A DNA stretch of 64,000 nt, taken from contig CAYORN010000002.1 of assembly GCA_964406405.1 (NCBI GenBank), positions 64,161 to 128,160 on the forward strand, given 5' to 3'. Origin of the DNA: an uncultured Alphaproteobacteria bacterium. GTDB taxonomy: Bacteria > Electryoneota > RPQS01. The position numbers and the translations under genes are program-made. The notes under the pieces were generated by a model. That model was not told the origin of the DNA, ran no database searches, and was given only the letters and a program-made list of their open reading frames with translations. Below, one piece after another: positions 1,018 through 58,020 of the stretch. Each line of letters begins with the position of its first letter. Positions within the stretch are counted from its first letter, which is position 1.

Positions 1018-1047
1018 TTCCCATCCTTCATCCCTCATCCTTCATCC
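1018..1047. repeat. TTCATCC/GGATGAA heptad-array repeat (family H)
   Basis: cccatccttcatccctcatccttcatcc; same heptad array recurs at 11101, 11201, 12614, 25156, 26018, 50383, 56212. Confidence 0.7.
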
Positions 1048-1231
1048 TTTCCCGAAGAGAGGCATTCCCTTCGCCGATTCGGGTCTCTTATCCCCTAACG
1101 CTCGCTATGATCGTCGCTTAGCGACTTTCATCATTCCCTAAAGATGTCTTGCGATTGGCCGTGAACCGATGTAAGTTATAGGGGATGAACCCTTAGAGAA
1201 CCGGCCCTTTTGAATAGCCATAGGATATCTT

Positions 1232-10246: not shown

Positions 10247-10485
10247 ATATCCCCTGCTTTCAATCGCATGGGTATTCTCGTGATAACAAAGCCCCCCATG
10301 GGGTTAGCTTTTTGTCGGACATTACGAAGAGGCGTCAAATTGGATAACGGTGCTTAAACCAGCCATGACTTTCATGACTCTAAGTGGCAAGGCGGTTGCG
10401 GATTTTGTTTATTTCCCGTATCTTACCGCCGATCCTCTTGATCGCCAACCCTCTTTCGATCCCAATGTTAATAAGGAGTTTGAAA

Positions 10486-11094
10486 ATGCCTCGCCCGTAC
10501 CTATGGGTTGTGTTGCTGTTGTGCGCCATGCTGGCCGTCTCCGGCTGCTCGAGCAAAAAGAAAGTCTCCCGCATTGATGCCGCAGAAACCGTGGACCTGT
10601 CCGGCAACTGGAACGATACCGATAGCCGCCTGGTCGCCGAAGAGATGATCAGCGACGCCTTGTCGCGGCCGTGGCTCGCGAATCACTTGCGCGATGCCGG
10701 ACAGAACCCGGCGGTGATTGTCGGCGCGATTCGCAATTTCTCCGATGAACACATCGCGACCGGCACCTTCGTCGGTGATATCGAGCGCGCGTTTGTCAAT
10801 TCCGGCAATGTGCGCGTCGTCGCCAAGAAGGAGGAGCGCGAAGGCGTGCGCGATGAGCGCCAGGATCAGCAAGCTAACGCTTCAATCGAAACCGTGAAGG
10901 AGTTCGGTCAGGAACTCGGTGCGGATTACATGCTGATCGGCGAAATCAACAAGATCACGGATCAGGAAGGCCGCGAGAAGATCGCCTTCTATCAGGTGGA
11001 TCTCACGCTGACTCACATGCAATCGAACGAGAAGGTGTGGATCGGACAGAAAAAGCTCAAGAAGTACATCGCGCGCAAAGCCTATAAGCCGTAA
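10486..11094 (+). CDS. lpoB: lipoprotein, penicillin-binding-protein activator LpoB-like
   Basis: start at MPRPYLWVV with AAGGAG RBS; lipobox LAVSGC; from memory aligns with E. coli LpoB C-domain (VIVGAIRNFSDEHIATGTF / FVNSGNVRVVA / LGADYMLIGEI / YQVDLTLTHMQSNEKVWIG). Confidence 0.6.
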   Translation: MPRPYLWVVLLLCAMLAVSGCSSKKKVSRIDAAETVDLSGNWNDTDSRLVAEEMISDALSRPWLANHLRDAGQNPAVIVGAIRNFSDEHIATGTFVGDIERAFVNSGNVRVVAKKEEREGVRDERQDQQANASIETVKEFGQELGADYMLIGEINKITDQEGREKIAFYQVDLTLTHMQSNEKVWIGQKKLKKYIARKAYKP

Positions 11095-11100
11095 CGGAAA

Positions 11101-11230
11101 GGATGAAGGCGGAAGGATGAAGGATGAACCGGAAACATTAGAGTCACCTTCGTCATTCATTTCAATTACCCTGTCATCGAGCACCTTTATGCTGAAGAAA
11201 TTCATCCTTCATCCCTCATCCTTCATCCTT
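11101..11230. repeat. inverted pair of GGATGAA heptad arrays (MITE-like, about 130 nt)
   Basis: left arm ggatgaaggcggaaggatgaaggatgaa (11101-11128); right arm ttcatccttcatccctcatccttcatcc (11201-11230) is its reverse complement; about 70-nt spacer contains the start codon of the next gene. Confidence 0.7.
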
Positions 11231-12604
11231 CTCTTCCTCCTGCTGGGCTGCGCGGGGCCGCGAACTACGCTCATGCAGAAGGTGCGGAACGAGCTGTTCG
11301 CCAATCGCACGCAGGCGGCGTACGAGACTTACAAGAAGAAGGTCGGCGAGACCGAGCGCGTAGATGAACTTTTGAATCTCGGCCTGCTCGCCTATGAAGC
11401 CGGGGATTATGCCGCCTGCCAAACGGCGCTCGCGCGAGCAGATGAACTCGCGGAAGAGCGGCAGACAAAATCGCTTTCCCGCGAAGCGGCGGGCGTGGCC
11501 GTGTCGGATCGCGTGCGCGCGTATCAGGGAACGGTGTTCGACAAGGCCATGATCCACTACTACCGCGCGTTGGCGTTTCTCGCTCAGGATCAATTGAATG
11601 AAGCGGCCATAGAAGGCCGCCGTGTGGCGAGTTACTTTGAAGTGAACTCCCGCGAAAGCAAGCACACGTACAAGGACGACGCCTTTCTCCAATGGTTCAA
11701 CGGCGCGTGCTATGAACACGCAGGACAAACCAATGATGCGTGGATCTCGTATAGGCGTGCGCGAGATCTCTACGGGGATTATTATGGATTGCAAGAGCCG
11801 CAATTTCTCTGCGGAGTGACGCACGCCGCGGCGCGAGCGGTGGGAGAAACGGGTGACACGCTCGATTGTCCCGATGCAGCTTTGAATCCGAACTACGGGC
11901 GTGTCGTGGTGATTTGCGAAGCGGGGCTGGCGCCCCCGATCCGCGAGGAGAATATCGTCTTGCCGATCCTGGAGACGGTGCCTTCAAACTTCGAGAACGA
12001 CGACGAGCGCGATCATTACTACTACGATCTCTACGAGCACAATCACTATGACGCCGGCTATCAGGGCTACGACGAGACGCGGCTGAAGTATCTCTTGCGG
12101 CTCGCGCTGCCGATCTATTCCTCGACGGACAACGGATCTCGCGTTGGGTATGTGAGCGTGCGCGGCGGCGATTCGCTTTGTCAGGAAGCCGAGTTGAGTG
12201 AGGATGTCGGCGCGATTTTGCGGCAGGATTTGAAAGACCGCTATCCGGCCATCGTGGCGCGGGCGATTACACGGGCGATTATCAAGTACAGCGCGACGGA
12301 AGTTGCGCGCGAACTCGGCAAAGAGAAAGACAAAGACGGTAAGCGCAAGGCCGGGCTGCTGAGTGACGTGTTGGGCACAATCGTCAACGCCGCCGGTGCG
12401 GCATCGGAAGCGGCGGACACGCGCTCGTGGGAGACGCTGCCCGACAAAATTTTCGTCGCCGACTTTCCATTACCGCCGGGCAATCACACGCTGCGTGCCG
12501 TGTATGAAGACGATGGCGGGCAGCTCATCTACCGCCATGACTTCGGCGCGGTGGATGTGAAGCCGGGGGAGATTGTGTTCCTCCGGGCGAGATGCATGGA
12601 GTGA
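11189..12604 (+). CDS. lipoprotein with TPR-like region, unknown function
   Basis: start MLKKFILHPSSFILLFLLLGCAG (lipobox LLGC); part of the signal peptide is encoded by the right heptad arm; co-directional and 95 nt downstream of the lpoB-like gene. Confidence 0.55.
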   Translation: MLKKFILHPSSFILLFLLLGCAGPRTTLMQKVRNELFANRTQAAYETYKKKVGETERVDELLNLGLLAYEAGDYAACQTALARADELAEERQTKSLSREAAGVAVSDRVRAYQGTVFDKAMIHYYRALAFLAQDQLNEAAIEGRRVASYFEVNSRESKHTYKDDAFLQWFNGACYEHAGQTNDAWISYRRARDLYGDYYGLQEPQFLCGVTHAAARAVGETGDTLDCPDAALNPNYGRVVVICEAGLAPPIREENIVLPILETVPSNFENDDERDHYYYDLYEHNHYDAGYQGYDETRLKYLLRLALPIYSSTDNGSRVGYVSVRGGDSLCQEAELSEDVGAILRQDLKDRYPAIVARAITRAIIKYSATEVARELGKEKDKDGKRKAGLLSDVLGTIVNAAGAASEAADTRSWETLPDKIFVADFPLPPGNHTLRAVYEDDGGQLIYRHDFGAVDVKPGEIVFLRARCME

Positions 12605-12613
12605 GCAAAGAAA

Positions 12614-12694
12614 GGATGAAGGATGAAGCAGAAGAGGGTCGGCTGCTTGATAACTGTGCTCGATACGCTTGAGATTCGCAGCCGACACCGCAAT
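12614..12694. repeat. heptad repeat fused to palindromic element G (GGTCGGCTGC...GCAGCCGACACCGCAA)
   Basis: aaaggatgaaggatgaagcaga then gggtcggctgcttga...gcagccgacaccgcaa; second copy of element G at 20781..20840. Confidence 0.6.
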
Positions 12695-13028
12695 TGTTGA
12701 ATGGACAAATTTCGGGCAGGTTCTCGGCGATGATCTCTAGTCACATTCGATCTCGTGGAACCTGCCTCGGCGATGCTAATGATTGTGCTTCTTCCGGCGG
12801 GGCTGCGGGGATCTCGCGATTGCTTTGATGAAGGCGATGCGCGGGATCAGGGCGGGAGAGACGATTGAAATTATCGCCCGCGACGCGGGCGCGGCGGATA
12901 GCTTGCGCAGCGAACAAAGTACCCTGCAATAAACAGGTATTAGCAAACCTCATTGTGTGTTCCGCGCAGCGTGACGCTCTTATTCATGAAACTAACGGTT
13001 CCTTTTCAGACAGAAAGGAATAGCGAAC

Positions 13029-24765: not shown

Positions 24766-26038
24766 GCATCTCATCTTCATTTCCGCCGGCGAGGCCTCCG
24801 GTGACACCCATGCGGCGGGAGTAGTTCGTGAGTTGAAATTGCGTTATCCGGATGCGACGTTCTTTGGCATTGGCGGGGATCAGATGCTGGAAGCGGGAGT
24901 CGAACTGATCGAGCACGCGCGGCGGATGTCGTTCATGGGATTCGCCGAAGTTGTGCGGCATCTGCCGTTCATCTACGCCACGCGCACGCGCGTGCTAAAA
25001 GAGATCGTCGTGCGGCGGCCCGATCTGATTTTGCTCGTTGACTATCCGGGGTTTCATTTTTCGCTGCTCAGAAGTTTGAAGCGGATGAAGATCATTGGAA
25101 AGCCGAGTCAAAGTTCGCCCCCCCTTGCCCCCCCGCAGGCGGAGGGGAAATCTGCTTCATCCTTCATCCTTCATCCTTCATCCTTTCCGAGAGTTCTCTA
25201 CTACATTCCGCCGCAGGTGTGGGCGTGGAAAGCGGGACGGGCGAAGGAACTGGCGAAGCTGGCGGATCGGATTGCGGTGATCTTTCCGTTTGAGGTAGAG
25301 ATCTTCAATAAGGTGACCCCCCCTGAATCCCCCCCGCTAAAGCAGGGGGGAAAGGCGGTGTTTGTCGGGCATCCGCTGTTAGATGAAGTGGGAGACATTC
25401 CGCCGCGGGGGCAGTTTCTCAAGAGCATCGGGCTGGAGCCGGATGACCGGGTGATCGGGTTGTTTCCGGGTTCGCGCAAGCAGGAGATCCGGCGCCATCT
25501 GCCGGTGTTAGTGGAGACGGTGCGCCTGCTGCGGCGGTTTCATCCGGAATTGAAATTCATTCTGGCCGAAGCGCCGGGCGTGCCGCTGGATCTGTACACG
25601 CGGTTGCTGCGCGACATTGCGGGAATCGTGCGCGTGGGCGGCGTGTCGCACGAAGTGCTCGCGCATTGCAACGCGTCCTTCGTGAAGTCCGGCAGCAGCA
25701 CCGTGGAAGCGGCGTACTTCGGCAATCCGTTCGTGGTGTTCTACAAGGTGTCGGCGCCGAGCTATGCGATCGGCAAGCGCATCGTGAAGGTGCCGTACAT
25801 TGCCATGGCGAATATCCTCGCGGGCGAGATGGTGGTGAAGGAGCTGATTCAGGATCAGGCCACGCCGGAAAATCTCTTCGCCGCCATGCTGCCGCTGATC
25901 AATTTGCCGGAGAGCGTGGAAGCCTGCCGCGCGGGACTCAGGAAAGTTCGCGCGCAGTTGGGCGAACCGGGCGCGGCAAAGCGAGTGGCGGAATTGGCGG
26001 GGGAACTGGTGGAAGAAAGGATGAAGGATGAAGGATGA
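24758..26038 (+). CDS. lpxB: lipid-A-disaccharide synthase LpxB carrying two in-frame repeat-element insertions
   Basis: GTG start (GTGTCTGA overlap with REase stop); LIFISAGEASGD, VSPxVWAW-like YIPPQVWAWK, FPFE; 30-aa and 14-aa extra segments coincide with repeat elements. Confidence 0.85.
   Translation: MSEHLIFISAGEASGDTHAAGVVRELKLRYPDATFFGIGGDQMLEAGVELIEHARRMSFMGFAEVVRHLPFIYATRTRVLKEIVVRRPDLILLVDYPGFHFSLLRSLKRMKIIGKPSQSSPPLAPPQAEGKSASSFILHPSSFPRVLYYIPPQVWAWKAGRAKELAKLADRIAVIFPFEVEIFNKVTPPESPPLKQGGKAVFVGHPLLDEVGDIPPRGQFLKSIGLEPDDRVIGLFPGSRKQEIRRHLPVLVETVRLLRRFHPELKFILAEAPGVPLDLYTRLLRDIAGIVRVGGVSHEVLAHCNASFVKSGSSTVEAAYFGNPFVVFYKVSAPSYAIGKRIVKVPYIAMANILAGEMVVKELIQDQATPENLFAAMLPLINLPESVEACRAGLRKVRAQLGEPGAAKRVAELAGELVEERMKDEG
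25117..25179. repeat. composite element: poly-C hairpin P + TTCATCC heptads, in-frame within lpxB
   Basis: gcccccccttgcccccccgcaggcggaggggaaatctgcttcatccttcatccttcatcc translated as SPPLAPPQAEGKSASSFILHPSSF. Confidence 0.75.
25317..25350. repeat. poly-C hairpin element P variant, in-frame within lpxB
   Basis: ccccccctgaatcccccccgctaaagcagggggg translated as TPPESPPLKQGG. Confidence 0.7.
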
Positions 26039-26050
26039 GGGAGGAAGGAA
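26018..26050. repeat. GGATGAA heptad array at the lpxB 3' end
   Basis: aaggatgaaggatgaaggatgagggaggaagg; gives the LpxB ORF a ...ERMKDEG tail. Confidence 0.65.
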
Positions 26051-26145
26051 TACAAACTCCAAACCTCAAACTACAAACTTCAAACCTCGTTCAAGCGATA
26101 CTCTTGTTTTCAATTTTCGATTTTCAATTTTCAGTTTGAGTTTTT

Positions 26146-30322: not shown

Positions 30323-32812
30323 ATGTCGCGGATTGATCTGCACGTCCATAGCCGGTACTCGGATCGGCCCACGAACTTCTTCCTGAAGAAGATGAAGGCG
30401 CCGGAGAGTCTGACCGAGCCGGAGGCCGCCTATCGGCTGGCCAAGCGGCGCGGCATGGACTTTTTTACGCTGACCGATCCGGACACGCTGGAAGGGTGCT
30501 TGGAATTGTCCAGGCATCCCGATGTCTTCCCGTCGTGCGAAACGACGGTGGCGTTTCCCGATAACGATTGCAAGATCAAGCTGCTGCTCTATGGCCTGAA
30601 CGAAGCGCAGCTCAAGCATCTGCTTGCGTATCGCGGGAACATCTTTCAGGCGCGGAATTATCTGCTCGCGGAGAATATCTTTCATGCCGTCGCCTCGCCG
30701 CTGGAGCCCTTGAACGCGCGGCTGGGTGTGGATCACATCGAGAAGCTGCTGCTGCTGTTCGATCATTTCGAGACGCGCTCCGGAATGCGGCACCCGCGGA
30801 CAAACGAGTTCATCACGGCGCTCCTGGACAGCTTGACGCCGGAGTTTCTCTTTGATCTCGAGCGCAAGTGGCGGATTCAGCCGGCGAGCGAAAAGCCGTG
30901 GCAGAAGGGGTATCTCGGCGGCTCGAACGATTATTGCGGGCAATACATCGGCCTGACGTGGACCGATGTGCCCGGCGTGCGGACGACGGGAGAATTGCTG
31001 GACAGTTTGCGGCGGCGCAGCGGCACGCCGGGAGGGATTCACGGCAGCACGCTCGCCGCGGCGCACTCGATGTACCGCGTGGCGTTTCAGTTCTACCAAA
31101 AGAACTTGCGGCGGAAAAACGTCCGCGAGCCGGACCTGATTTCGCTCCTGCTCTCGCGAGTGCTGCAGCCGGAAGAAGCGCAGCGCCTGACCGTACGTCA
31201 AGCGGCGGCGATGACAATGGCGATGCTGCGGCGGCTGCTTCACCCGCGGCGCGGGCCGTCGTACATTGAGCGGCGGTTAATGCGTGAATTCATCCGGGCC
31301 TATAACCGCATTCCGGCGAGCGAACGTCTGCGCGATATTCCGCGCGACGATTTGGTGACGTATGACGAACGGCTGTACAGTCTTGTGGATCGCGTGATGG
31401 GGGAAGTGACGTACCGGCTGCTGGAGCGGGCAACACGGGAGTTCGAGCGCGGGCGTGTGGGAAATGCGCTCTCTCTGGGCGCGGCGATTCTGCCGGTGCA
31501 GGCGGTGCTGGGGCCCTATCTTTATTCCTTCAACCGGATGAACTCCGACCGGCCGCTGCTGGCAAAGTTGGAAGCACGCTTTTCTCCGGCGCTCGAATTG
31601 CCGCCGTTGCGCGCACCGCGAAAAAAGATCGCCTGGTTCTCGGACACGATTACGGACGTCAACGGCGTCTCGCTCACGCTGCACAAAATGGCCGAGGTAG
31701 CGGAAAAGCTGAACGCGGATCTGACGATTATTTCGTCGGTCACGCGGGACAAAGCGCCGCAGGGACCGAAGTTCTTGAATTTCGAGCCGGTGGGCGAGCT
31801 GCCGGTTCCCGATTATGAATTGCAGAAGCTCGCGGTGCCGCCGGGATTGCAGATCATTCGCTATCTCGAACAGGCAGGATTCACGGAATATGTGATCTCC
31901 ACGCCGGGGCCGGTGGGCATGATTGCGCTGCTCGCCGCGAAGATGCTGCATGTTCCGGTGCGGGCAATTTATCACAGCGATTTTCCGGAGCACATACGCC
32001 ACATCACCGGCGACGAGGGCTTGTATCAGGCCGCGTGGACGTTCATGCGCTGGTTCTACGGCAAGGCCGACGCCGTGTACTCGCCCAGCGCCTTCTATCG
32101 CGACCAGTTGATCGAGCACGGTTTCGATCCGACGCGAATGTTTATCTTTACGCGCGGAACGGATCTTGATTTCTTCAATCCCAAGCATCGCGACGACACG
32201 TTCTATCAGGCATGGGGGATCCGCGGCCGGGTGGTGTTTCTTTACACCGGACGAGTGTCGCGCGAGAAGAATCTTGACACGGTGCTGGATGCGTTTTGGG
32301 GCGATGACGAGTTGAAGGCGAAGGCCGCGCTGGTCATCATCGGCGACGGACCGTACGCCGGCGAGTTGAAAGAACGCTACAAGCATCCGGCGATTGCGTT
32401 TCCGGGATTTATGAAAGGCAAGAATCTCGCGCGGGCATATGCGTCGGCGGATGCGTTTGTCTTTCCCTCGACGACGGACACGTACGGCAATTCCGTCCTG
32501 GAAGCGCAGGCGTCCGGCTTGCCATCGCTGGTCTCGGACGAAGGCGGCCCGAAGGAGATTATTCTGCCGAATCAGAGCGGCTTCGTGCTGCCAGGGCATG
32601 ACGTGCCGGCGTGGCGCGCGGCGATGCGCGATTTGACAATGGGCACAGAGCTTCGCGCCCGCATGGCCTCGGCGGCGCGGGCACGAGCGGCGACAAGGGA
32701 CTGGACCACGGCGTTTCGGGAGTTTTGGGAGGTAGATCCGTACGGAAAAAGTTCAAACCCAAAATCCCAGATCCAAGATCCCAAATCCCAGTCGGAAGTA
32801 CCCCGGCCTTAG
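30323..32812 (+). CDS. fusion protein: N-terminal PHP-domain phosphoesterase + C-terminal GT4/GT1 glycosyltransferase
   Basis: IDLHVHSRYSD...FFTLTDPDT (PHP); C-terminal ...FLYTGRVSREKNLD...EAQASGLPSLVSDEGGPKEII (Glycos_transf_1); low-complexity tail from an A/C-rich repeat. Confidence 0.7.
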   Translation: MSRIDLHVHSRYSDRPTNFFLKKMKAPESLTEPEAAYRLAKRRGMDFFTLTDPDTLEGCLELSRHPDVFPSCETTVAFPDNDCKIKLLLYGLNEAQLKHLLAYRGNIFQARNYLLAENIFHAVASPLEPLNARLGVDHIEKLLLLFDHFETRSGMRHPRTNEFITALLDSLTPEFLFDLERKWRIQPASEKPWQKGYLGGSNDYCGQYIGLTWTDVPGVRTTGELLDSLRRRSGTPGGIHGSTLAAAHSMYRVAFQFYQKNLRRKNVREPDLISLLLSRVLQPEEAQRLTVRQAAAMTMAMLRRLLHPRRGPSYIERRLMREFIRAYNRIPASERLRDIPRDDLVTYDERLYSLVDRVMGEVTYRLLERATREFERGRVGNALSLGAAILPVQAVLGPYLYSFNRMNSDRPLLAKLEARFSPALELPPLRAPRKKIAWFSDTITDVNGVSLTLHKMAEVAEKLNADLTIISSVTRDKAPQGPKFLNFEPVGELPVPDYELQKLAVPPGLQIIRYLEQAGFTEYVISTPGPVGMIALLAAKMLHVPVRAIYHSDFPEHIRHITGDEGLYQAAWTFMRWFYGKADAVYSPSAFYRDQLIEHGFDPTRMFIFTRGTDLDFFNPKHRDDTFYQAWGIRGRVVFLYTGRVSREKNLDTVLDAFWGDDELKAKAALVIIGDGPYAGELKERYKHPAIAFPGFMKGKNLARAYASADAFVFPSTTDTYGNSVLEAQASGLPSLVSDEGGPKEIILPNQSGFVLPGHDVPAWRAAMRDLTMGTELRARMASAARARAATRDWTTAFREFWEVDPYGKSSNPKSQIQDPKSQSEVPRP

Positions 32813-32890
32813 GGTTGGTTTGTGCGTGGTCGTTTCGGCGGGTCACTTTGCTTGTTTCAGGTTTCAAGTTTCACATTTCAAATATTCTTT
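32745..32890. repeat. A/C-rich heptad array and complementary T/G-rich heptad array (inverted, about 60-nt spacer)
   Basis: aaaagttcaaacccaaaatcccagatccaagatcccaaatcccag ... gtttcaggtttcaagtttcacatttcaaatattc; similar pairs at 26040..26145 and 49480..49530. Confidence 0.55.
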
Positions 32891-49759: not shown

Positions 49760-51343
49760 CTACAACTCCCTCAACTCGGAGTGTGGATAATAGTGTTCGA
49801 GAATACTCTCCACACTCCGCCCCGCTTTTGCCATGGCCGCCGCGCCTAATTGGCAGAGGCCGACGCCGTGGCCCCACCCGCCGCCCGTCAAGGTGATCGT
49901 GTCGCCGTGGATGTCGAAGACGAAGAACGACGAGGGCAGGTGCGATGACGAGAGTGCGCGTCGGATGTTGAGTTCGCCATAGATCACGAAGGAGGCTGAT
50001 CTGCCGACAATTTCCAGGACGAGAATACGCCCTGAGGACCCGCGGCGCTTGACGTGCAGCGATTTGATCGCACCGACTTTTGTGCCGGTTTTGCTCGCGA
50101 TCAATTCGCCCAATTCCGCGCACGAATAGGTGCGTTGCCAGCGGAAGAGCGGGTCTGTGTCCCACGGCTCGGGATAGGGAAACAGCTTGTCGTTGCACCA
50201 CGCCGGCGGATGCGAGAGCACGAACGCGCGCGCATGCTCCTCGTCCGTCAAATCGAGCACGGGGAACTCGCCGCACGCGCGTACCGCGAAATACGCCGGC
50301 CCTTCGTCACCCCACGCTTCTTCATAAAGTTCGCTCACGCCGCCGCAGGACTTCGCATACCTCGCGTCTACGACGCGGGGAAAGGATGAAGGATGAAGGA
50401 TGAAGGATGAAGCAGACCCCCCTTTTGTCCCCCCACTAAGGTAGGGGGAGACTAAGACTTTTCCGGCGGAATCACGAATCGGAGCCACAACTGCGTTGGC
50501 TTCACGATACGTACCTTGATAACACTGGCAGTGATCGTCGTTGCAGAGATCGAAGCCGTCGGCGCGGTGATGGCGGCCCGCCGTGGCGAGCACCGTGGAA
50601 CGCGCGGCAATCGCCTGCGCCTGCGAGAAGGCCGGCGGCAAATCGGAACGCATCTCGCTGCCGACCGCGCTCTCAAGGTACATTTCGAGCGGCAGAATAT
50701 TGACCGCCGTGAGATCGTGCCCCTGCGGCTGAAAGAGTTTCAACGAACCGCGATATTCGAGCTGCTCCTTGTGCTCCCAATGAAAGCCGCGGCCGATCGG
50801 CACGTCGTAGAGCCAGAACACCGCAACGTCGTTCAGCGGCCGCGTGCGCACCTCGAGCACTTTCGCGGAAAAATCGCCGAGCGTAAATTCGAAGTACTCG
50901 GCAGGCTTGGCTTCATTCAGCTTGACGACGGTGAAGCCGAGTACGTTCAGCTCGTGGCGCGCACGCAGCACCTCCATCACGTTGGCAGCGTGCTCGGGCG
51001 AATTGACGCGCACGGTCGGCCACCAGACGCGGTTGTCGAGCGTGCCGTTGGGCGTTTCCCATTGCCGCCCGGCTTCGAGCATCAAGAGATCCTCGTTGGC
51101 CGCGAGATCGCCAACGAAGGAAAGCGTGCGCTCGGCATGTTCACGCGAGAGCGATTCGGCCAAACGCAAACCATAGCTCTCGTTGGGTTCGCTGGTCACC
51201 GCGTGAGCTTCGAAATATCCGGCAATCTGGTCGAATTTCAAACTGCGGCAGCAATCCGTGATGCAGATCACTTCGTGATCGCAGATCAGTTCGCCGCGGA
51301 TGTGCGGCTCTTCCCAGAGCAGGCCGATGGAAACGGAAAGCAT
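49760..51343 (-). CDS. SpoIID/LytB-domain protein (amidase-enhancer-like) with in-frame repeat insertion
   Basis: LPLEMYLESAVGSEM...AQAIAARSTVL...HHRADGFDLCNDDHCQCYQG (SpoIID domain); ...ARYAKSCGGVSE; start taken at MLSVSIG (51343) because upstream in-frame codons are repeat-derived. Confidence 0.7.
   Translation of the reverse strand: MLSVSIGLLWEEPHIRGELICDHEVICITDCCRSLKFDQIAGYFEAHAVTSEPNESYGLRLAESLSREHAERTLSFVGDLAANEDLLMLEAGRQWETPNGTLDNRVWWPTVRVNSPEHAANVMEVLRARHELNVLGFTVVKLNEAKPAEYFEFTLGDFSAKVLEVRTRPLNDVAVFWLYDVPIGRGFHWEHKEQLEYRGSLKLFQPQGHDLTAVNILPLEMYLESAVGSEMRSDLPPAFSQAQAIAARSTVLATAGRHHRADGFDLCNDDHCQCYQGTYREANAVVAPIRDSAGKVLVSPYLSGGTKGGSASSFILHPSSFPRVVDARYAKSCGGVSELYEEAWGDEGPAYFAVRACGEFPVLDLTDEEHARAFVLSHPPAWCNDKLFPYPEPWDTDPLFRWQRTYSCAELGELIASKTGTKVGAIKSLHVKRRGSSGRILVLEIVGRSASFVIYGELNIRRALSSSHLPSSFFVFDIHGDTITLTGGGWGHGVGLCQLGAAAMAKAGRSVESILEHYYPHSELREL
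50383..50449. repeat. composite GGATGAA heptads + poly-C hairpin P, in-frame within the spoIID-like gene
   Basis: ggatgaaggatgaaggatgaaggatgaagcagaccccccttttgtccccccactaaggtaggggg read on minus strand as SPYLSGGTKGGSASSFILHPSSFP. Confidence 0.75.
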
Positions 51344-51387
51344 AGAGAAAATTGAAAAATGAAAATCGAAAATTGTCGTCTTTTTGT

Positions 51388-56207: not shown

Positions 56208-56211
56208 TTCA

Positions 56212-56235
56212 AGGATGAAGGCGGAAGGACGAAGT
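56212..56235. repeat. GGATGAA heptad remnant + hairpin
   Basis: aaggatgaaggcggaaggacgaagttccctccgcctt. Confidence 0.5.
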
Positions 56236-56290
56236 TCCCTCCGCCTTTATCTTTACTTGGCAAAGAACAAGCAATCTGGAGACGAAGAAC

Positions 56291-56565: not shown

Positions 56566-58020
56566 ATGAAGTACTCACTTCTGATTCTGCTGGCGTGTGC
56601 GGTGGCGGGGTTTGGGCAGCCGGTGGAAGGGCCGTTTATCGTTATTGAAAGCGACTCGGCCATTCACCACATTCACGTCGCTGCGCGAAATGATTCGGTG
56701 GCGGATGTGTTTTATCAGGTGGGGAATGCGGCGTATCACGTTGCTTTTGCGCTCGATATTGGGGTGGTATATGCAGGGCCGGATGCTCTTCCTATGCGGA
56801 GCGCAAGCGACGCTCGAATGCTCTGCGATGTAACATCAACCACAGTCGGCTGGGCAGCTCTGACCTACGACTCATCTTCCGGATGGAATCGAACGATGGC
56901 CTACTCTGGATCTGACAACCCGGATTCCGGCATGATGCTTGACTCGGGAATTGTGATGAGCAGCGGGGAATGGGTTTCGATCAGTCAAAATTACGCGCTT
57001 CGGCTTTCATCGAGAACGTCAGGCGGATTCTTCGCGGCATGGCTCAATGAATGGGCCTACGATCGTCCGTGGTTTTGGGGTGAAGCCGGGGCTGGACCGG
57101 TTGTCCATGAGTTCTCACCTGGCGGTGTGCATCGGTGCGCGCAAAACGGTTATGAGGGCCCTTTTCAAAACGAAAGCCAGTCTGTAGATGTTTTCGAATG
57201 GAGTCCGGATACGTCTCTTGTCCTCATAAGTGAACCCGACGGCATCACAATAAGCGCTGCTCCGTGGGGCGAATTTGGTTGCGGCTATGTTAGCTCCTTA
57301 AATTGGCTTTGGCGAGGGGTGCGCAATGTCGGCAGCTTGTTTACGAGCAGCGGTACAATCTTTGTTGTCTCTCGCAGCGTGGGATCTTCCCAAGCCTGCA
57401 TTCTGCGTATTGACGATTTCTCATCATACACTCAATTGGATACTCTGGACAGCGAGCCGATCGTCGCTGCTTCTAACCTCTCCTTCGGCTTCGCGTGGCT
57501 CTCTCAGCCTTCGAGCGGATTACTCCTGAATCGTGCCGACACGACCGGAACGCTCGTTCATCCGGCAGGTGTGGTGTGCTGGCCGGATGAAGGAATGGCT
57601 ATAACCGGAAGCAATATTGCCATTTCGGATAACGGCAAGATTGTGATCGTTTGGACGACGCAAGCCATCGCGAATCCGGAATCCACGCAGCTTTGGATTG
57701 AAGCCGTGGATTGGCTCACTCCGCTTTCGGTTAGTCCACAACCGGAGGTTGTGGGCAGTCCGTCGGATTTTGCACTTTCCGCCTATCCGAACCCCTTCAA
57801 CAGCGAGCTGCAGATTGCGTATGACCTGCCGCGCGCGCAGACGATTGAGTTGGCGGTGTACAACGTGCTCGGGCAAAAGGTGGCGGAATTGGTGAACGGA
57901 GTGCAGACCGTGGGAAATCATCAGGCGATGTGGTCGGCCCATGAAGGGAGCGGGATCTATTTCGTGACGCTGAGGACGGGAGAGACTACTAAGACACAGA
58001 AGGTGCTGCTGGCGCGATAG
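56566..58020 (+). CDS. T9SS-sorted secreted protein, tandem family member 1
   Basis: CAGGAGG RBS; signal MKYSLLILLACAVAGFGQPVEGP; C-terminal YPNPFNSELQIAYDLPRAQTIELAVYNVLGQKVAEL...GSGIYFVTLRTGETTKTQKVLLAR. Confidence 0.7.
   Translation: MKYSLLILLACAVAGFGQPVEGPFIVIESDSAIHHIHVAARNDSVADVFYQVGNAAYHVAFALDIGVVYAGPDALPMRSASDARMLCDVTSTTVGWAALTYDSSSGWNRTMAYSGSDNPDSGMMLDSGIVMSSGEWVSISQNYALRLSSRTSGGFFAAWLNEWAYDRPWFWGEAGAGPVVHEFSPGGVHRCAQNGYEGPFQNESQSVDVFEWSPDTSLVLISEPDGITISAAPWGEFGCGYVSSLNWLWRGVRNVGSLFTSSGTIFVVSRSVGSSQACILRIDDFSSYTQLDTLDSEPIVAASNLSFGFAWLSQPSSGLLLNRADTTGTLVHPAGVVCWPDEGMAITGSNIAISDNGKIVIVWTTQAIANPESTQLWIEAVDWLTPLSVSPQPEVVGSPSDFALSAYPNPFNSELQIAYDLPRAQTIELAVYNVLGQKVAELVNGVQTVGNHQAMWSAHEGSGIYFVTLRTGETTKTQKVLLAR

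Follow-up and report, generated by a model that had tools for sequence, protein, structure and literature searches.

Two arrays of the same heptad face each other across the start of a lipoprotein gene, one of them running into its coding sequence, and this raises the question of what such a feature is and where it came from. The arrays lie in a stretch of 64,000 nucleotides (nt) from an uncultured bacterium (GenBank assembly GCA_964406405.1, contig CAYORN010000002.1, positions 64,161 to 128,160; the whole stretch is termed the window herein, and positions are counted from its first letter). The left, purine-rich arm (positions 11099 to 11128, plus strand, AAGGATGAAGGCGGAAGGATGAAGGATGAA) and the right, pyrimidine-rich arm (11201 to 11231, minus strand, TTCATCCTTCATCCCTCATCCTTCATCCTTC) are both period-7 arrays according to Tandem Repeats Finder and are separated by 72 nt, which agrees with an earlier note on this DNA that had described them as reverse complements about 70 nt apart. 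We conclude that this 130-nt feature is, on balance, probably an old member of a family of dispersed palindromic elements, non-autonomous and REPIN-like in design, that are built from heptad repeats, and that one of its arms was exapted in a signal peptide.

The left arm consists of AA followed by the units GGATGAA, GGCGGAA, GGATGAA, and GGATGAA and starts 5 nt past the TAA stop codon (11092 to 11094) of an LpoB-like gene. The right arm holds about 4.4 units, which read on the plus strand as TTCATCC, TTCATCC, CTCATCC, TTCATCC, and TTC and are broken by the CTCATCC variant. The 72-nt spacer (11129 to 11200, plus strand), the sequence of which is not conserved beyond close relatives, would form the loop of a hairpin and holds the probable true start codon of the lipoprotein, an ATG at 11189. 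When the region from 11085 to 11245 (161 nt) was folded as RNA and as DNA, a check proposed in the earlier note, the arms paired both as RNA (−50.8 kcal/mol, z score −4.33, none of 200 shuffled sequences folding as well) and as DNA (−26.1 kcal/mol, z score −3.81), with internal loops at the variant units GGCGGAA and CTCATCC. Read in the GGATGAA sense, three units spell GGA TGA AGG ATG AAG GAT GAA and place a TGA and an ATG in every frame; a Shine-Dalgarno-like AAGGA lies 6 nt ahead of each ATG, giving a mini-open reading frame (ORF) that encodes MKDEG followed by a stop codon. Read in the TTCATCC sense, the array is translated as FILHPSS over and over, and all three frames are free of stop codons and of the start codons ATG, GTG, and TTG. 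Where an array of either orientation survives would follow from these codon properties of the unit.

Searching the window for the 14-mer GGATGAAGGATGAA, i.e., (GGATGAA)2, with at most one mismatch yielded 15 matches, compared to 0.05 expected from shuffled sequences; these matches form eight arrays, including both focal arms. Outside the window, a scan of species-representative genomes for exact (GGATGAA)3 yielded more than 118 stretches, distributed over at least nine phyla, compared to about 0.3 occurrences expected by chance (21-mer, 596 Gb), and the loci were inspected as 8-kb stretches per genome. The carriers belong to the Planctomycetota, Acidobacteriota, Chloroflexota, Cyanobacteria, Verrucomicrobiota, Armatimonadota, Hydrogenedentes, Bacteroidota, and Proteobacteria, among others, and include the cultured strains Chthoniobacter flavus Ellin428, Mongoliitalea lutea, and Belliella kenyensis. 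Since the arrays are present in more than 100 other genomes, isolates included, the concern of the earlier note that they might be an assembly artifact of this contig is dispelled, and its suggestion that the arms belong to a dispersed repeat was borne out. Among viral stretches in IMG/VR, 95 contained (GGATGAA)3, versus 15 and 16 for two control heptads of the same composition (an approximately 6-fold excess). Three contigs that are dense in elements (L133, L146, and L147) are true phages or prophages, with genes for terminase, head protease/major head protein, and replication initiator, and in them elements sit flush between structural genes at several junctions. In metagenome contigs L125, L126, and L128, whole elements are tandemly duplicated, with the L125 copy lying between two tRNA genes. 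The GGATGAA hairpin family is therefore present in many bacterial phyla and in (pro)phages.

The members of this family share the architecture 5′-AA(GGATGAA)3-5, a variable spacer, and (TTCATCC)3-5TT-3′, and as the element is a palindrome, its purine arm comes first on whichever strand it is read. The polarity is nearly absolute. Among neighboring arrays no more than 250 nt apart in the genome loci, 46 pairs had the purine arm first and the pyrimidine arm second (“+−”), none had the reverse order (“−+”), and three each were “++” and “−−”; the viral loci had 47 “+−” and 1 “−+” pair, and exact gapped patterns in viral contigs gave 20 stretches with “+−” versus 0. Among 241 million metagenome records, “−+” occurred in six stretches, three of which are joints of tandem “+−” elements. 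The control heptads seldom paired (two pairs and no pairs, respectively). Of 89 arms, 86 have R-AA-GGATGAA at the outer end. Spacers vary in length (11 to 167 nt) and lack conservation between phyla; within one genome they can be related, in either orientation (three copies in L083 and two in L021). GGCGGAA, a double mutant, ranks fourth in frequency among the units, occurs at nine loci, accounts for 9 of 20 double-mutant units, and is frequently the second unit from the outer end, as it is in the focal left arm. That 30-nt left arm recurs identically in L123, at the orthologous junction with 59% amino acid identity, and in L125, between the tRNA genes. The polarity, the shared variant units, the recurrence of one and the same arm in otherwise unrelated contexts, the spacer families, and the units duplicated as a whole in tandem favor a dispersed element whose copies have a common origin over independent local slippage, and we infer from these sequence comparisons that the copies descend from one another.

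The gene context fits what the arms encode. Of 40 scorable pairs, 28 are flanked by co-directional, 8 by divergent, and 4 by convergent genes, a mix that seems to resemble the one usual for adjacent genes in bacteria. The upstream stop codon typically lies 0 to 12 nt from the purine arm of a pair, and of 26 single arrays at the end of a co-directional gene, 21 were located between −22 and +8 nt from it. Among 178 arrays, 108 were intergenic, 14 provide a stop codon (GGATGAA sense), and 52 lie within ORFs (TTCATCC sense). The idea that the pyrimidine arm is commonly an N-terminal coding segment was rejected, as an in-frame start codon is found a few codons past the array in most of 26 cases; the probable downstream starts typically lie 1 to 8 codons past the arm. 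The real start is thus usually just 3′ of the arm, which makes the lipoprotein of the window exceptional.

We propose that the element is mobilized in trans through a single-strand hairpin, as in REPINs, and could spread in this way within and between genomes, phages included, with its arrays turning over after insertion by conversion or slippage. On entering the purine arm, an upstream ORF would meet TGA in whichever frame it is read and end at once, and the pyrimidine exit arm would be silent for both stops and starts; these two properties belong to the codons themselves. The hairpin might loop the insert out and so leave the stop codon of one gene near the start codon of the next. Because of the coding properties of its arms, the element would be tolerated at gene boundaries, and at the focal locus it occupies the gap between the LpoB-like gene and its partner lipoprotein gene. 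A role at the RNA level (RNase III processing, termination, or translational coupling) is conceivable as well.

What happened to the right arm can be followed in the lipoprotein. The LpoB-like gene (10384 to 11094, plus strand; PF13036, E value of 3.5e-38), the stop codon of which abuts the left arm, precedes a lipoprotein gene (11189 to 12604, plus strand) that encodes 471 amino acids, matches no Pfam family, has tetratricopeptide repeat-like features in distant homologues, and has the LpoB-like gene as its upstream partner. Its 21-residue signal peptide MLKKFILHPSSFILLFLLLGC (11189 to 11251, plus strand) ends in the lipobox LLGC, followed by AGPRTT, and the right arm forms residues 5 to 15 of it (FILHPSSFILL, with FILHPSSFIL read in frame). 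Judged by its sequence features, the peptide has the expected parts, i.e., a positively charged n-region (MLKK), a hydrophobic h-region (FILHPSSFILLFLLL), and LLGC with Cys21, and its hydrophobic peak (Kyte-Doolittle, 9 residues) of 3.19 falls within the range of 2.8 to 3.3 in orthologues that have no array. Of the 68 homologues, about 45 have a complete N terminus, and nearly all of these carry a lipobox and AGPRT or AGKRT. The earlier note had asked whether homologues elsewhere lack the HPSSFIL segment; array-less orthologues do exist, and several others have h-regions that are likewise derived from heptads (FFLHTSYFIV, FIPHPSSLIL, and FIVHRSSFIV).

The earlier note had also placed the start codon of the lipoprotein in the spacer, with the right arm translated, and had named a start past the repeat as the finding that would overturn it. 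No in-frame ATG, GTG, or TTG is present between the right array and the lipobox Cys, the next Met (in LMQKV) sits past the lipobox, and relatives L001 and L120 keep the start, with the motif ATG-(L/I)-K-(K/N)-F. The NCBI gene call (P0001, 495 amino acids) instead begins at an ATG at 11117 within the left arm (MKDEPETLES…). Since this start would add an acidic extension of 24 residues, and since spacer length and frame are not kept in L001, ATG 11189 is the probable true start, and the call at 11117 was probably drawn to the AAGGA and ATG of the array. Because start and lipobox are conserved and there is no alternative start, the right arm is read as codons 5 to 15 of the predicted signal peptide, into which it was exapted.

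Comparison of the junction among relatives (identities are those of the lipoprotein relative to the window, in amino acids) suggests that its two sides have had separate histories. In L001 (86%), the stop of the LpoB-like gene is followed by (GGATGAA)n with one TTATGAA, and the signal peptide is encoded by TTCATAC and TTCATCG units, with complementarity lost. Three further relatives carry (CAAATCC)n, a different heptad family, after the LpoB stop, together with (CTCATCC)n in the signal peptide of L120 (77%), (TTCATCG)4 in that of L121 (75%), and no evident array in that of L124 (73%). In L122 (60%), C/G-rich hairpins follow the LpoB stop and (TTCATCG)3 lies in the signal peptide, and in L123 (59%), the 30-mer identical to the left arm of the window is combined with (TTCATCG)3 in the signal peptide, located 15 nt downstream. 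Unit number and unit type thus differ among species at the same site. The pyrimidine array in the leader peptide is old, with its unit type turning over, and different elements have occupied the left side of the junction. As the left side was replaced and the arms drifted, the focal pair is not a co-inherited unit and its pairing is not conserved; the view of the earlier note that the focal arms form a single unit did not hold, given that L120 and L121 keep the right arm only and the arms of L001 are no longer complementary. The expectation that each genome has one unit “flavor,” as in concerted evolution, was only partly borne out: a genome of the NODE_356 type is mixed, with CGATGA-type arrays in its SpoIID gene and after the lipoprotein gene and GGATGAR at the end of lpxB.

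Two of the arrays in the window, at about 25155 and 50382, are in-frame insertions within genes, which the earlier note had missed. In lpxB (24785 to 26038, plus strand), an insertion at 25100 to 25188 adds about 29 codons to a conserved loop and consists of a C/G hairpin block (PPLAPPQAEGK), TCTGC, and (TTCATCC)4TTTCC; the array itself (about 25155 to 25188, minus strand) is translated as SSFILHPSSF. The loop ahead of VLYYIPPQVWAW has 3 residues in most orthologues, and the copy in the window holds …KPSQSSPPLAPPQAEGKSASSFILHPSSFPR. Other repeat-derived versions of the loop are found in relatives (…LIAHRSS… and PP..GG blocks), and the close orthologues P0073 (80% identical) and P0075 have no insert. 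In the SpoIID/LytB-like gene (49763 to 51343, minus strand), (GGATGAA)4 (about 50382 to 50412, plus strand) is read on the minus strand as SSFILHPSS. The corresponding loop, ahead of RVVDARYAKSCGG, is 1 to 2 residues long; SSFILHPSS-type peptides are patchily distributed among orthologues of 56 to 87% identity, and other orthologues have inserts of the C/G-hairpin type in the same loop. At the nucleotide level, L268 has no insert, L267 has exactly (TTCATCC)4TTTCC, and the window adds a C/G-rich block of 39 nt (13 codons) at 50412 to 50450, between the flank and the array. These comparisons indicate that gain and loss occurred in discrete, frame-preserving blocks that are nested at hot spots. 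The C6…G6 hairpin blocks, at about 25112 to 25155 and 50412 to 50450, constitute a second repeat family; they translate as PP.PP..GG or SPL.KGG, often adjoin heptad arrays, are often absorbed by gene calls, and are also found in N-terminal extensions of the homologues P0015, P0032, P0033, P0036, and P0046.

The other arrays in the window are single arrays or, in one case, a small pair. The earlier note had counted at least eight recurrences, and every recurrence that it listed was confirmed (as arrays starting at 1022, 12612, 25155, 26017, 50382, and 56212). A single array at 1022 to 1049 (minus strand) is intergenic, past a rhomboid gene and its terminator, and is found in the same place in L001. 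At 12612 to 12628 (plus strand), a short single array of 2.4 GGATGAA units plus GCAGA begins 8 nt past the lipoprotein stop codon and is followed by an unrelated hairpin. The array at 26017 to 26049 (plus strand) provides the stop codon of lpxB, with the tail …ERMKDEG*. Because the lpxB orthologues end differently (MRDEG*, MRAEG*, or INAER*), this tail is repeat derived and variable. The earlier note was therefore right about the KDEG tail of lpxB, but such tails are not frequent as it had stated: only one of the eight arrays makes one, and three others start 4 to 8 nt past a stop codon. At 56211 to 56254 (plus strand), a degenerate mini-pair of AAGGATGAAGGCGGAAGGACGAAG and TTCCCTCCGCCTTTATCTT starts 4 nt past the stop codon of a class-V aminotransferase gene and is followed by UUUAUCUUU. 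Its hairpin (−26.8 kcal/mol, z score −5.05) has a U-rich tail and is probably an intrinsic terminator, which suggests that some copies act as terminators.

Next to the lipoprotein gene, at about 12800 to 12935, there is a remnant of a TusA-like gene (…GCGDLAIALMKAMRGIRAGETIEIIARDAGAA…) that has no start codon and a divergent end, and the DsrE-like gene that follows the TusA-like gene in L001 is absent from the window; together they indicate a rearrangement or deletion beside the array and hairpin at 12612 to 12690. The window also holds at least five other heptad families (CAAACYW, TTTTCAA, CAAATCC, GTTTCAA, and GAAAATT) in intergenic leaders, several with a TTCA-NNN core like that of TTCATCC; they are located at 26053 to 26088, 26107 to 26137, 32754 to 32790, 32854 to 32881, and 51347 to 51375. 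Genes with C-terminal sorting domains of the type IX secretion system (Por_Secre_tail) are found at 1232 to 2647 and 56566 to 58020 of the window and at loci of relatives; taken with the names of homologues, they put the source organism close to metagenome-assembled genomes of the FCB group that resemble KSB1/Calditrichota.

Several results weigh against a dispersed mobile element. No mobilizing enzyme, no target-site duplication, and no clean-ended pair of empty and filled sites for a full element was found. In 44 pairs, the lengths of direct repeats in the flanks equaled those of a shuffled-partner control; no neighboring protein recurred near the arrays, the maximum being 5 of the 118 loci listed; no RAYT gene was seen in the 118 genome stretches; and no autonomous copy was found between distant “+…−” arms, the ORFs enclosed by these being housekeeping genes. 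GGCGGAA is mirrored in the other arm in only 2 of 13 pairs and there are no compensatory changes, and as variant units are seldom mirrored, pairing is not under strong selection. The focal arms were not inherited together, since L120, L121, and L124 carry (CAAATCC)n on the left and L124 is without an evident right arm, and the variation of the unit among relatives (TTCATCC, CTCATCC, TTCATAC, and TTCATCG) fits local turnover and insertion equally well. Heptad arrays are also common in general, as seen from the control heptads (15 and 16 stretches, compared to a near-zero random expectation) and from the several other families in the window. Finally, the gene maps of foreign loci are uncurated greedy longest-ORF maps, and the counts cover 8 kb of each genome.

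Some of these points are what one would expect if the arrays were ordinary long simple-sequence repeats (SSRs) that arise locally by slippage or conversion, with the arms independent of each other and coding constraints deciding which orientation survives at a given place. Bacteria are known to have an excess of heptamer SSRs (Mrazek 2007, cited in PMC4692102 and PMC4679880); in the window there are the at least five other heptad families, the same-composition controls are also well above the random expectation, the unit type shifts coherently at orthologous sites, the left arm has been swapped for another family, and the arms do not co-vary. Nevertheless, local slippage would leave the 46:0 and 47:1 polarity unexplained, as an intergenic “−+” pair is equally allowed by coding, and likewise the preferred position of GGCGGAA in many phyla, the identical 30-mers in unrelated contexts, the spacer families, the tandem duplication of whole elements, and the approximately 6-fold excess over control heptads that rarely pair. 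We consider this explanation unlikely.

An explanation with a somewhat lower probability still is that the pairs are selected cis-acting RNA or DNA structures that punctuate operons, with a stem of 25 to 30 bp serving as an RNase III site or 3′ stabilizer, a weak terminator, or a coupling device. At the focal locus, the hairpin would then govern translation of the lipoprotein, with the start codon in its loop and the first 15 codons in its stem. The strong predicted folds, the flush placement of stops and starts around the arms, the elements at several junctions of phage structural operons, and the U-rich tail at 56211 to 56254 are consistent with such a function, and the RNase III hairpins between genes of phage T7 are a comparable arrangement. 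Against it stand the lack of compensatory changes between arms, the loss of the focal pair as a pair in relatives, a loop that is unconstrained between 11 and 167 nt, and flanking gene orientations that look like background, including the eight divergent pairs. Intrinsic terminators have a G+C-rich stem with a U tract behind it; no such site was predicted between 11099 and 11240, where the focal pair lies, and only the mini-pair at 56211 to 56254 has a U-rich tail. Rfam searches of the whole window gave no match at gathering thresholds and, at relaxed thresholds, only generic eukaryotic microRNA-hairpin models far below their cutoffs. Function would not explain the strict polarity, either.

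It is highly improbable that the right arm is a contingency tract for phase variation, in which gain or loss of 7-nt units toggles the lipoprotein: the unit length is indivisible by 3 and the tract is part of the leader sequence of a lipoprotein destined for the surface, much as CTCTT repeats are in Neisseria opa leaders, but it has only about four units with a CTCATCC interruption, the same arrays are in frame in SpoIID and in lpxB (a gene essential in most Gram-negative bacteria), and orthologues hold the frame with decayed arrays. Readings of the motif as a CsrA site (ARGGAUG), a Chi-like site, an uptake sequence, or a FokI site (GGATG) were set aside, as the motif is buried in the stem, no system is common to the carriers, and the polarity would not be explained.

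A dispersed palindromic element with common descent is thus the reading that we retain, and it can be compared to known systems. REPINs are inverted doublets with a spacer that form a hairpin in single-stranded DNA or mRNA and are accompanied by singlets and tandem clusters; they have GTAG tags, RAYT partners, and compensatory changes (Bertels and Rainey 2011, PMC3116915). The GGATGAA family is similar in its inverted doublets with a less conserved spacer and hairpin-forming inverted repeats, in the excess of doublets, in the presence of singlets and tandem clusters, in its extragenic location, and in the lack of a target-site duplication. It is different in that the arms are tandem heptads and not imperfect palindromes of 20 to 40 nt, that neither a GTAG nor a CGTC tag was present at the outer ends of the 89 arms, that the same arm is common across phyla whereas REP sequences are usually specific for a species or a RAYT, that copies are also found within ORFs and in phages, and that compensatory changes are missing.

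In unit length, the family resembles the bacterial heptamer repeats, the excess of which has been ascribed to slippage (cited in PMC4692102 and PMC4679880). TAACTGA repeats have stops in all frames in the forward direction, are open and sometimes translated in the reverse direction, and occur across phyla; they are direct repeats, with one indirect (inverted) case in 170 sets (MacGregor 2015, PMC4679880). Xanthomonas has GGGAATC, including some inverted pairs, and Nostoc has GGGGAYT (Rehm 2015, PMC4692102). Shared features with these and with the cyanobacterial short tandemly repeated repetitive sequences (STRRs) are tandem 7-nt units in two to six copies, mostly intergenic near gene ends, several families per genome, and a patchy spread across phyla that suggests horizontal transfer; like TAACTGA, GGATGAA has forward stops in all frames and an open reverse strand. 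What sets GGATGAA apart, besides the sequence of the unit, is the dominance of inverted pairs with near-absolute polarity, the wider range (at least nine phyla plus phages), and the in-frame copies in conserved enzymes.

The earlier note had called the focal pair similar to a miniature inverted-repeat transposable element (MITE). The element is indeed small, non-coding, and multicopy, with hairpin potential and terminal inverted repeats (seen in 46 further pairs elsewhere), but flanking direct repeats did not exceed the shuffled control, no linked transposase, recurrent gene, or cognate insertion sequence with the same ends was seen in the stretches, and the spacer lacks conservation from one lineage to the next. 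The architecture is closer to that of REPINs. The Rickettsia palindromic elements (RPEs) of Ogata et al. 2000 are reportedly 100 to 150 bp long, located in frame in genes, and translated as surface segments. They share with our family the presence of palindromic repeat DNA in frame within protein genes; RPEs, however, are restricted to Rickettsia and unrelated in sequence, whereas GGATGAA elements are mostly intergenic and, where they are coding, usually take the form of a single arm, alone or next to a C/G block. As in opa genes, a tandem repeat with a unit length that is not a multiple of 3 encodes a hydrophobic part of the signal peptide of a surface protein; unlike the long, phase-variable opa tracts, the GGATGAA tract is short, interrupted, and also present in housekeeping genes. 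A search of the accessible literature for GGATGAAGGATGAA or for the peptide signatures returned no match (the reversed string occurred once, in an article about a splicing protein of humans that has no connection to the repeat), and the GGATGAA hairpin family has apparently not been described before.

Bacterial heptamer repeats, known since 1990, are over-represented more strongly than any other class of long SSRs. The GGATGAA family offers a handle on their origin and function, having a defined architecture, traceable variant units, a link to phages, and culturable carriers such as Chthoniobacter flavus. It matters for annotation as well, as gene callers start ORFs in the purine arm (MKDE…) or read on through the pyrimidine arm. 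With regard to protein evolution, these arrays provide stop codons, persist as in-frame loops in LpxB and SpoIID-like proteins, and, in the window, build part of what is probably a working signal peptide. More tentatively, and with considerable doubt, the family could represent a pan-bacterial, phage-borne, self-looping mobile element, whose arrays would be copied on the hairpin by a conserved process acting in trans and which would target stop-start gaps and permissive loops, punctuating operons and serving as a source of new coding sequence. If so, the GGATGAA element would recurrently supply bacteria with stop codons, with segments of signal peptides, and with loops on the surface of essential enzymes.

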